Made by a program: the position numbers and the translations under genes. The notes beneath the pieces were generated by a model. The model ran no database searches, had not been told where the DNA came from, and saw nothing but the letters and a program-made list of their open reading frames with translations. A DNA stretch of 64,000 nt from Pseudomonadota bacterium (GTDB lineage Bacteria; Pseudomonadota; Gammaproteobacteria; Burkholderiales; SG8-39): contig JANMDK010000353.1 of NCBI GenBank assembly GCA_031376265.1, positions 16,193-80,192 on the forward strand, written 5' to 3'. Shown piece after piece: positions 58,993-64,000 of the stretch (its first letter is position 1; each line of letters starts with the position of its first letter).

Positions 58993-62721
<3,729 letters not shown>

Positions 62722-62730
62722 TTCGGAACT

Positions 62731-62774
62731 CCGGAAAACAAAAAACCCGTTCAGCTTGCGCAAGAAACGGGTTT
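62731..62774 (-). terminator. intrinsic terminator inside the metH 5' leader
   Basis: On the minus strand: AAACCCGTT (62774-62766), 14-nt loop, AACGGGTTT (62751-62743), then TTTGTTTTCC. It ends on the metH Shine-Dalgarno. Confidence 0.75.
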
Positions 62775-62911
62775 CTCGTCTCTTTAGCGGCATTTGTTTG
62801 ACCGGCCCTGAACCTGGCCGGGCGCCCGCAAGCTGAACCTCAAATCGGCGCTGGCGCGCAATATGAGCGCGCACTAACCATATTGTCCCCGGCGCGCGCT
62901 GGCGGTGTCAA
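62775..62911 (-). promoter_or_regulatory. metH promoter and structured leader (candidate riboswitch/attenuator aptamer region)
   Basis: On the minus strand: TTGACA (62911-62906), 18-nt spacer, GACAAT (62887-62882), then three GC-rich hairpins. GTTCAGCTTGCG (62838-62827) is exactly complementary to CGCAAGCTGAAC (62760-62749) in the terminator. Confidence 0.5.
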
Positions 62912-62967
62912 CCTCGCACGTATAATCGCGGTCCGCTGCAAGGCTGGCTTCCGGCCCCATTCGCCCG

Positions 62968-64000
62968 ATGGAAAACCCCACTGCCTACCCGACCATCCGG
63001 GTCGCGCTGACCGTCTGGGGTCTGGGCGCGATGCTCTACCTCATCGGTTTCTTCCAGCGAGTCGCACCGGCTGTGTTGACGCAGGAGCTGATGGCGGAAT
63101 TCGCGCTGACCGCAGTTGCGCTCGGCAACTTGTCCGCCTTGTACTTTTACGCCTATGTCGCGATCCAGATCCCCACGGGGGTGCTCGTCGATCACTGGGG
63201 GCCGCGCCGGGTGCTGACCGCAGGTGCACTGCTTGCCGGCGCCGGCACGTTGCTCTTCGCACTCGCGTCCGCCTACGCGGTGGTCGGCGCAGGGCGCTTA
63301 CTGATCGGCGCCGGCGTCGGTGTCGCTTTCGTCTCGATGCTCAAGCTTGCGACGCACTGGGTGAAGCCCTCGCGCTTTGCGCTGATTTCGGGACTTGCGC
63401 TTGCCTGCGGCAGCATCGGCGGCGTTTCCGCCGGCGTGCCCCTGCGGCTGGCCGTGGACGCGTTCGGCTGGCGACCGGTCATGCTCGCGGCGGGACTGTT
63501 CACCGCGCTCCTCGCAATCGCGACCTGGATCGTTGTGCGCGACGATCCGCGCGAGCGCGGGCTTCGCAGCTTCTCCACCATCGCGCCTTCGGCTGTCCCG
63601 CATCATTCGATGCTGGGCGGCATCCGCGAAGTCTTTCGCTACCGAAACGTCTGGCTCAACTTCATCGGCTGCGGCGCGATTACCGGGCCGATGCTGGCGT
63701 TCGGCGGGCTGTGGGGCGTGCCTTTCCTTGTGGCGCACTACGGCCTTTCTACAGCGCAGGCGGCCTTCGTCACCTCGATCATGCTCGTGGCCTGGGCGTT
63801 CGGCAGCCCGATGGCCGGCGCGCTTTCGGACCGGATGCACAGGCGGAAGCTGCCGATCCTCGTTGGCGGTGGCGTTGCCGCAGTCCTCTGGGGCGTGCTG
63901 ATCTACGTCCCCGGCCTGCCCTATGCGGTGCTGATCGCGCTCATGGTCGGGCTCGGCCTTTCTTCGGGCGTCGTGGTGATCGGATTCGCCTTTTGCAAGG
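62968..64000 (+). CDS. MFS transporter, N-terminal part (3' end outside window)
   Basis: Hand translation from ATG 62968 gives MENPTAYPTIRVALTVWGLGAMLYLIGFFQRVAPAVLTQELM...DHWGPRRVLTAGALLAGAG, with MFS-like TM helices and the GPRR loop. The frame is open to the window end. Confidence 0.8.
   Translation, partial: MENPTAYPTIRVALTVWGLGAMLYLIGFFQRVAPAVLTQELMAEFALTAVALGNLSALYFYAYVAIQIPTGVLVDHWGPRRVLTAGALLAGAGTLLFALASAYAVVGAGRLLIGAGVGVAFVSMLKLATHWVKPSRFALISGLALACGSIGGVSAGVPLRLAVDAFGWRPVMLAAGLFTALLAIATWIVVRDDPRERGLRSFSTIAPSAVPHHSMLGGIREVFRYRNVWLNFIGCGAITGPMLAFGGLWGVPFLVAHYGLSTAQAAFVTSIMLVAWAFGSPMAGALSDRMHRRKLPILVGGGVAAVLWGVLIYVPGLPYAVLIALMVGLGLSSGVVVIGFAFCK

Follow-up and report, generated by a model that had tools for sequence, protein, structure and literature searches.

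The leader of metH in the 64,000-nucleotide stretch of DNA analysed here (the window) is very probably a SAM-II class SAM riboswitch, predicted from its sequence to be an OFF switch acting by transcription termination. It adds a member to a known class and does not found a new one: it belongs to a beta-proteobacterial branch of SAM-II, carries a hairpin in loop L3 and has metH as its target. An earlier note on this DNA had described the leader as an unassigned switch of open class, possibly a divergent SAH or SAM-family element or something undescribed. The SAM-family guess proved correct, the class being SAM-II; the class is not open, because orthologous leaders without the L3 hairpin pass Rfam's SAM-II threshold, and the core of the element follows the SAM-II consensus (RF00521) position for position, with the hairpin as an L3 insertion.

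The element is read on the minus strand of a 246 nt intergenic gap between metH and a divergent gene for an MFS transporter (Table 1). The ORF downstream, taken by the earlier note for metH, does encode MetH, with an NCBIfam PRK09490 score of 2148 bits (cutoff 1497) and a TIGR02082 score of 1737 bits, also over its cutoff; the start codon was set by comparison with relatives. The sigma-70-like promoter that had been proposed on the minus strand is likewise present. It is a 10/12 match and the sole sigma-70-like site in 62400-63300, a region in which shuffled sequences would be expected to hold 0.1, and the nearest relative (L145) has identical promoter hexamers at identical spacing. A TTGAC -35 element lies at equal distance in most orthologous leaders. 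Transcription would start near 62875. The promoter is situated about 25 nt upstream of stem P1, and the leader context is that of SAM-II, with a methionine gene and an intrinsic terminator.

Table 1. Features of the metH leader and its surroundings, in window coordinates
Feature	Coordinates	Strand	Details
MFS transporter gene	start 62968	+	PF07690 match; divergent from metH
Sigma-70-like promoter	62882..62911	-	TTGACA 62911-62906, 18-nt spacer, GACAAT 62887-62882
Hairpin 1 (P0)	62854..62872	-	GCGCGC-UCAUAUU-GCGCGC; in the MFE fold; between the putative transcription start and the aptamer
Putative SAM-II stem P1 (hairpin 2)	62822..62851	-	GCGCC 62851-62847 / GGCGC 62826-62822, 20-nt loop
P1 loop contents	62828..62846	-	L1 GAUUUG 62846-62841; variable AGGUUCA 62840-62834; putative P2b 5′ strand GCUUGC 62833-62828
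Hairpin 3	62802..62821	-	CCGGCC-AGGUUCAG-GGCCGG, 20 nt, inserted in aptamer loop L3
Remainder of L3	62801-62789	-	UCAAACAAAUGCC; A-rich AAACAAAU at 62798-62791
Putative pseudoknot 3′ strand	62788-62782	-	GCUAAAG, plus short P2a extension AGAC 62781-62778
Intrinsic terminator	62735..62774	-	5′ arm AAACCCGUU 62774-62766; loop UCUUGCGCAAGCUG 62765-62752
Terminator 3′ arm	62751-62743	-	AACGGGUUU, then U tract to 62735
Candidate antiterminator 3′ strand	62749..62760	-	CGCAAGCUGAAC; terminator loop and first 3 nt of the 3′ arm
Ribosome-binding site	62732-62729	-	GGAG, adjoining the end of the terminator
metH	58993..62732 including the ribosome-binding site	-	GTG 62721 to stop 58993; cobalamin-dependent methionine synthase, 1242 aa

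Rfam was scanned over 62700-62920 and 62000-64000 up to E <= 10, and a scan of the whole window at gathering thresholds was empty. The scan of 62700-62920 suggested in the earlier note did bring up the right class, as a partial match to SAM_alpha (RF00521) at 62851-62822 (model positions 11-41, posterior 1.00), but its 14.7 bits lie under the gathering score of 36. In this match, GCGCCGAUUUGAG-GUUCAGCUUGCGGGCGC of the window is set against the consensus GUGGuGAUUUGacCGGCCGGCUUGCAgCCAC. Directly after hairpin 3 the window reads AAACAAAUGCCGCUAAAGAG, and the stretch 62778..62801 agrees with SAM_alpha consensus positions 43-62, AAAcAAgUCGCUAAAgAG. Because hairpin 3 is followed by the rest of the SAM-II consensus, we read the element as a SAM-II aptamer interrupted by a 20-nt L3 hairpin, and it is this insertion that holds the SAM_alpha score below threshold. 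The SAH, cobalamin, ZTP, SAM-I, SAM-V and SAM-II-long-loop (RF01726) riboswitches gave no Rfam match at E <= 10, which removes the divergent SAH element from consideration and agrees with the earlier note's failure to recognize a cobalamin or ZTP core. The remaining candidates (ohsC, mir-255, L-myc IRES, Thr leader and others) scored far below their thresholds and were rejected as terminator look-alikes or GC-rich noise.

Relatives were sought by comparing MetH residues 1-400 with 185,579 species genomes; there was no close MetH relative, the best being 77% identical, and the top matches were uncultured Betaproteobacteria, Burkholderiales and Usitatibacter MAGs. The motif is present in 17 of 80 MetH loci, with MetH identities of 63-77%, lying directly upstream of metH in 16 and before a metF-metH pair in L046; the element was not found in the other 63 loci, which include Vibrio, Haemophilus and Serratia. 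The L3 site is free of any insert in ten of the 17 loci; in the other seven it is occupied by a hairpin, unrelated in sequence. All ten insert-less leaders are full-length SAM_alpha matches (26.8-40.1 bits), and four of them (L026, L004, L010 and L034) pass the gathering score of 36. A covariance model, R1, built from the 17 orthologous loci only, with the window left out, scores 73 bits (E 8e-22) at 62858-62771 of the window, and no other place in the 64 kb scores above 12 bits. R1 aligns the P1 stretch 62851-62822 gap-free and treats hairpin 3 as a 21-nt insertion.

The aptamer, at about 62851-62778 on the minus strand, would fold as a classic H-type pseudoknot, in which GCUAAAG, further downstream, would join the U-rich L1 GAUUUG and GCUUGC in a triplex and pseudoknot (P2). 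By the numbering of the crystal structure (PMC3303485), GC pairs with GC and UU with AA in P2, leaving one U unpaired; the P2a pairs in the window are C-G, U-A and G-C, an extension of only about 3 bp. In the SAM-II crystal structure (Gilbert et al. 2008, as given in PMC3303485), SAM is stacked between U21 and G22 and paired to U44, and beneath the L1 uridines lie the pairs U20-A46 and U21-A45. The SAM site is made up of U20/U21/G22 and U44/A45/A46. By alignment, these residues appear to correspond to the conserved CUUG of GCUUGC and CUAAA of GCUAAAG in the metH leader.

The same architecture is found well beyond metH. A pattern scan of metagenome contigs, in which GCUUGC and GCUAAAG had to lie 24 nt or more apart, gave at least 120 matches; in about 95 of those listed, P1 is perfect, a hairpin that varies in sequence comes next, and AAACAAAU after it. 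The genes downstream of 76 hairpin-containing copies among the matches listed are metX (39), metZ (18) and metH (10), the three reference identities (MetX, MetZ and MetH) having been confirmed by NCBIfam. SAM-II copies with an L3 hairpin are common in soil and freshwater metagenomes, before metX, metZ and metH. P1 is perfect in 101 related elements among the matches listed. In the 93 distinct elements among them, with kinship ignored, the P2a pair v-3:t3 forms in 83% as against 61% after shuffling, a level that 0 of 10000 shuffles reach, and its pair types are U-A (47), C-G (15), A-U (8) and U-G (7). For a second P2a pair, v-5:t4, the corresponding figures among the matches listed are 54% and 37%, again with kinship ignored. 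In these alignments P2a covaries across the family.

Downstream of the aptamer, the terminator that the earlier note had described, with a 9-bp stem and a U tract ending at the GGAG ribosome-binding site, is indeed present. It forms part of the MFE fold, its isolated hairpin has a folding energy of -20.9 kcal/mol, and a hairpin followed by a U tract occurs in all 18 metH leaders (18/18) and in 88 of 101 related elements among the matches listed. The perfect 12-nt complement seen earlier between the loop of hairpin 2 and the terminator also stands: GUUCAGCUUGCG in the aptamer loop (62838-62827) is 100% complementary over 12 nt to CGCAAGCUGAAC (62760-62749). By our own arithmetic, about 0.001 such complements are expected by chance in 231 nt, so the complement is not a chance feature. 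The duplex between loop and terminator is predicted at -21.7 kcal/mol, compared with -10.3 +/- 2.7 kcal/mol for shuffled terminators (p = 0.001).

These features suggest a model in which SAM, by locking the pseudoknot, would tie up the core of the 12-nt antiterminator strand. With SAM bound, the loop would be locked in P2, the terminator (62774-62735) would form and transcription would stop short of metH. At low SAM, the loop segment GUUCAGCUUGCG would be free to pair with CGCAAGCUGAAC as the latter emerges, and this pairing would delay or weaken the terminator hairpin and allow RNA polymerase to read through. The interpretation of the long-range pairing as a likely antiterminator, and of the leader as a ligand-type terminator/antiterminator switch, had been offered in the earlier note and is upheld here. 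What the comparisons show is homology to SAM-II together with a conserved architecture and complementarity; that SAM binds, which way the switch works and how the strands compete in time are inferred. Known SAM-II RNAs bind SAM but not SAH, terminators often come after them, and they have been interpreted as OFF switches (PMC1273637); most of those in alpha- and beta-Proteobacteria are coupled to terminators (PMC2258182).

Predicted folds of truncated and full transcripts fit a kinetic switch. When the transcript is cut off at 62749 or 62743, its MFE structure is the antiterminator, whereas that of the full leader is the terminator (-59.9 vs -55.9 kcal/mol). The fold of the whole leader, at -64.6 kcal/mol, is moderately better than that of shuffled sequences (z = -2.3). 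The antiterminator spans only 3 nt of the terminator 3′ arm, and AAACCC/GGGUUU could in principle still pair. Because the terminator state is favoured at equilibrium by 4 kcal/mol and the overlap is limited to 3 nt, read-through would have to rest on the kinetics of strand competition.

One alternative accepts the SAM-II aptamer but holds the 12-nt complement to be incidental, with control exerted through Rho, at the level of translation, or simply by the tail folding in response to ligand, no strands competing. The small overlap with the terminator arm speaks for it, as does the finding that five of the 18 metH leaders (L002, L004, L011, L012 and L049) have no ungapped helix between aptamer loop and terminator, although in L004 only one A-C mismatch interrupts the 12-bp pairing. 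Exact 12-nt pairing is not universal among metH leaders, and other members pair the loop with the terminator 5′ arm instead. Formal covariation analysis of the 12-nt helix found one pair with compensatory changes, column shuffles equalling the real alignment; covariation here is weak or uninformative because the aptamer strand is nearly invariant.

Several observations nevertheless argue against an incidental complement, beyond the rarity of a perfect 12-mer. An equivalent helix of 8-13 bp is present in 12 of the 18 metH leaders, with one of 7 bp in L034, and the 12 nt are identical in L145 and L009, of which L145 has the aptamer in common with the window as well. The terminator-loop motif GCAAGCUGA(A/G)C is kept across linkers that cannot be aligned, in loci whose MetH proteins are 63-77% identical. 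Matching changes occur in four leaders, as U-A to C-G exchanges in L003 and L046 and also in L026 and L034. The helix is register-specific, with 70.9% of cells paired vs 29-44% when the partner is slid, and in the 101 elements among the matches listed the longest helix between loop and downstream sequence averages 8.1 bp, whereas shuffled and upstream controls average 6.9 bp. Among the elements listed, pairing is better for cognate than for non-cognate loops (p = 0.001), and the ribosome-binding site lies outside any conserved pairing. We therefore regard an incidental complement as unlikely and prefer strand competition between aptamer loop and terminator.

A second alternative concerns the ligand: the leader could belong to a distinct beta-proteobacterial class, the ‘metXZ element’, merely resembling SAM-II and sensing SAH, homocysteine or methionine. 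Leyn et al. 2014 (PMC4239095) called that motif a novel RNA and placed SAM_alpha only in alpha-Proteobacteria, and SAH riboswitches control metH in other Betaproteobacteria (PMC4239095). The Rfam SAM-II model, moreover, misses every hairpin-containing member tested, 0/23 reaching E <= 1. Set against this are the full-length SAM_alpha matches of the insert-less orthologues, four of them over the gathering score, and the presence of all the SAM-II core segments, GAUUUG, GCUUGC and AAAcAAnnnGCUAAAG. The logic of an OFF-switch terminator upstream of metH also suits SAM and not SAH. SAH riboswitches are generally described as ON switches, and the architecture of the metH leader would be that of an OFF switch. 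Bordetella bronchiseptica, finally, appears both in the SAM-II alignment (PMC1273637) and, with the BB4554 leader, in the metXZ alignment, a match at species level only. A separate class is, in our judgement, very unlikely, and on aligned sequence the metXZ element is itself assigned to SAM-II.

The three GC hairpins reported in the earlier note are all present as described, but they are not equivalent: hairpin 2 is P1 of the aptamer, and hairpins 1 and 3 are optional. A hairpin occupies the site of hairpin 1 (P0) in L002, L008, L194 and L156, with a different sequence in each; it is missing in L145 and most other relatives and lies outside the SAM-II consensus. P0 may have a role in transcript stability or folding. 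The L3 site in relatives is either insert-free or holds a hairpin of unrelated sequence; 97% of 90 distinct L3 inserts among the matches listed fold into a stem of 4 bp or more, and the median z vs shuffles is -2.64. Because hairpins 1 and 3 come and go among close relatives, we consider them decorations and not switch elements of the whole family. The earlier note had proposed to look for covariation in the three hairpins and the 12-nt pairing in the metH 5′ regions of relatives; that of the 12-nt helix is weak, and hairpins 1 and 3 are absent from many relatives.

The second copy of AGGUUCAG (GGUUCAG) that had been pointed out in the loop of hairpin 3 is real. However, it is not conserved, being missing in the nearest relative, L145, whose L3 hairpin loop reads CAGAGGUAGGA, and a stretch of 231 nt should contain about 0.4 exact 8-nt direct repeats by chance alone; the copy was rejected as a functional element. 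A more far-reaching idea is that the beta-proteobacterial hairpin branch (metXZ element, Bp2_287 and the metH leader) is a functionally diverged SAM-II subclass, in which the L3 hairpin alters ligand affinity or specificity or provides a second switch arm. If this were true, the hairpin 3 loop AGGUUCAG, which duplicates the antiterminator segment, could compete for CUGAAC of the terminator and make a three-state device. We hold such divergence to be highly improbable.

A further alternative places the conserved block on the other strand, as a trans-acting small RNA like Rfam Bp2_287 (RF02424; Burkholderia SIPHT candidate 287). Bp2_287 does have the best Rfam E-value in the region (plus strand 62740-62897, E 0.007), and the Burkholderia candidate gave an RT-PCR product (PMC3521395). 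Its 20.7 bits, however, are far under the gathering score of 70, and the promoter, the SAM-II consensus and the U tract all lie on the minus strand, no plus-strand promoter having been found in 62400-63300. Where Bp2_287 passes its threshold (L151, L191 and L198, 119-205 bits), it lies antisense to a metZ leader in 3/3 cases, with the SAM-II motif, the terminator and metZ on the opposite strand, and the candidate's own authors proposed a cis-acting element of methionine genes (PMC3521395). A plus-strand small RNA is hardly credible, and RF02424 is apparently modelled on the wrong strand. Leader-peptide attenuation was rejected on sequence alone, since the sole small ORF (ATG 62880, 13 codons) begins 5′ of the putative transcription start and has no run of Met codons.

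As a minus-strand SAM-II riboswitch, the leader would give metH in this genome a concrete regulator, SAM feedback via transcription termination, and would add metH to the SAM-II target genes. It also exposes an annotation blind spot, in that the Rfam SAM_alpha model overlooks variants with an L3 hairpin. One RNA apparently goes by two unrelated names, the ‘metXZ element’, for which no ligand is given, and Bp2_287, an sRNA on the wrong strand. Merging both into SAM-II would correct the distribution maps of riboswitches in Betaproteobacteria; the value of doing so is at the level of curation and not of new biology.

Amongst known systems, the SAH riboswitch (RF01057) likewise precedes metH in one group of Betaproteobacteria, the Comamonadaceae (PMC4239095), but has no sequence or structure match in the window. 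The SAM-II long-loop family (RF01726; PMC2864571) comes from Bacteroidetes and marine AT-rich sequences and has no match in the window at E <= 10. Bp2_287 (RF02424; Khoo et al. 2012, PMC3521395) resembles the metH leader in combining a SAM-II-like aptamer, an L3 hairpin and a terminator upstream of methionine genes, and is the sole Rfam family to detect the element weakly over its full length; it differs in that its model reads the opposite strand and is classed as an sRNA gene.

SAM-II itself (RF00521; Corbino et al. 2005, PMC1273637) shares P1 closing a GAUUUG/GCUUGC loop, the A-rich L3 AAACAAAU and the 3′ strand GCUAAAG, as well as the location upstream of a methionine-pathway gene and the intrinsic terminator platform typical in alpha- and beta-Proteobacteria (PMC2258182). 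The window element differs in its 20-nt L3 hairpin and the optional hairpin before P1. In SAM-II a short A-rich L3, UUAAAcAAg, joins P1 directly to the P2 3′ strand, whereas in the window the hairpin precedes AAACAAAU; SAM-II RNAs with insertions of this kind have been described (Weinberg et al. 2010, PMC2864571). P1 is GCGCC/GGCGC in the window, compared with the alpha-proteobacterial GUGGu/gCCAC in SAM-II. The published SAM-II targets that we found are metA, metX, metY, metC, hom and metW, and metH is not among them.

The closest counterpart is the ‘metXZ’ element, on which the original paper was the only literature found (Leyn et al. 2014, PMC4239095, Figure S2). It lies upstream of metXW or metZ, whereas the window element precedes metH. 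The two share, in order, GCGCC, GAUUUG, G(C/A)UUGCG, GGCGC, AAAUnCn and GCUAAAG, with an optional hairpin between blocks 4 and 5 that is there in Burkholderia, Ralstonia and Cupriavidus. In both, a terminator comes next, and a terminator/antiterminator logic was proposed for the metXZ element (PMC4239095) as it is here for the metH leader.

SAM-II copies whose L3 carries an inserted hairpin proved abundant in metagenomes, with at least 120 matches (L081-L200). At E <= 1, the Rfam SAM-II model SAM_alpha detected none of the 23 hairpin-containing copies examined; the loci concerned are those from metagenomes, among them L145, the nearest relative, together with L001 and L005. Even beta-proteobacterial copies that lack the insert were borderline on the same model: they scored 26.8-40.1 bits, where the gathering score is 36.

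The window leader itself contains an 8-nt direct repeat, AGGUUCAG, with one copy in the aptamer loop (62833-62840) and the other in the L3 hairpin loop (62808-62815). The repeat may be a sign that the insert arose by local duplication, but it is not kept in L145, and chance alone would give approximately 0.4 repeats of this kind. AAACAAA in L3 (62793-62799) and UUUGUUU in the U tract of the terminator (62736-62742) are complementary, a correspondence that may reflect chance between A-rich and U-rich tracts.

An optional GC-rich hairpin ahead of P1, which may stabilise the 5' end, is present in a subset of leaders only, namely L002, L008, L194 and L156 as well as the window; its sequence differs in every leader (GCGCGC, GUGCGC, ACGCGC and others), and L145 has none. 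Linker architecture is highly plastic among these SAM-II leaders: three orthologous leaders (L009, L010 and L013) carry an additional hairpin between GCUAAAG and the terminator, formed by CGGGAGAC...GUCUCCCG or CGGGGC...GCCCCCG and followed by UACCCU, and shorter extra stems occur in L003, L006 and L008.

Locus L046, from a single MAG labelled Gammaproteobacteria, places the element (374-440) ahead of metF (506-1486; PF02219, 303 bits), with metH next in line, an arrangement that suggests a metF-metH operon under SAM-II control. R1, the covariance model of orthologous leaders, has a second, weak match there at 479-558 (13 bits). Upstream of metH, the Burkholderiales MAG locus L025 has no SAM-II motif; at approximately 1400-1480 it carries GGAGCGCUGC, reminiscent of the SAH-riboswitch core, but no Rfam family matched there at its gathering score. 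In the window, the divergent neighbour of the metH leader is a transporter gene that extends past the window end and has no evident link to methionine metabolism.

Features of the window leader region and matches to RF02424 (Bp2_287)
Feature	Location	Strand	Detail
Optional GC-rich hairpin	window 62854-62872	-	between inferred transcription start and P1
MFS_1 transporter, divergently transcribed	window 62968-64000	+	PF07690, 126 bits
Bp2_287 region	window 62740-62897	+	Rfam
Bp2_287 match above threshold	L151:2875-3048	opposite SAM-II-like aptamer	Rfam
Bp2_287 match above threshold	L191:5684-5857	opposite SAM-II-like aptamer	Rfam
Bp2_287 match above threshold	L198:1532-1728	opposite SAM-II-like aptamer	Rfam

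RF02424 is typed in Rfam as a Burkholderia sRNA gene. At the three loci scoring above threshold (119-205 bits), the U-tract terminator and the downstream metZ, like the aptamer, are antisense to the match; with its matches opposite all three, the family appears to represent the strand antisense to a SAM-II metZ leader.

A 2014 paper (PMC4239095) presented the metXZ RNA element as a new regulator of metX and metZ in Betaproteobacteria and assigned it no ligand; our literature search found no later paper tying it to SAM-II. Its conserved blocks (PMC4239095 Figure S2) are shared with SAM-II and with the window metH leader at 62851-62782.
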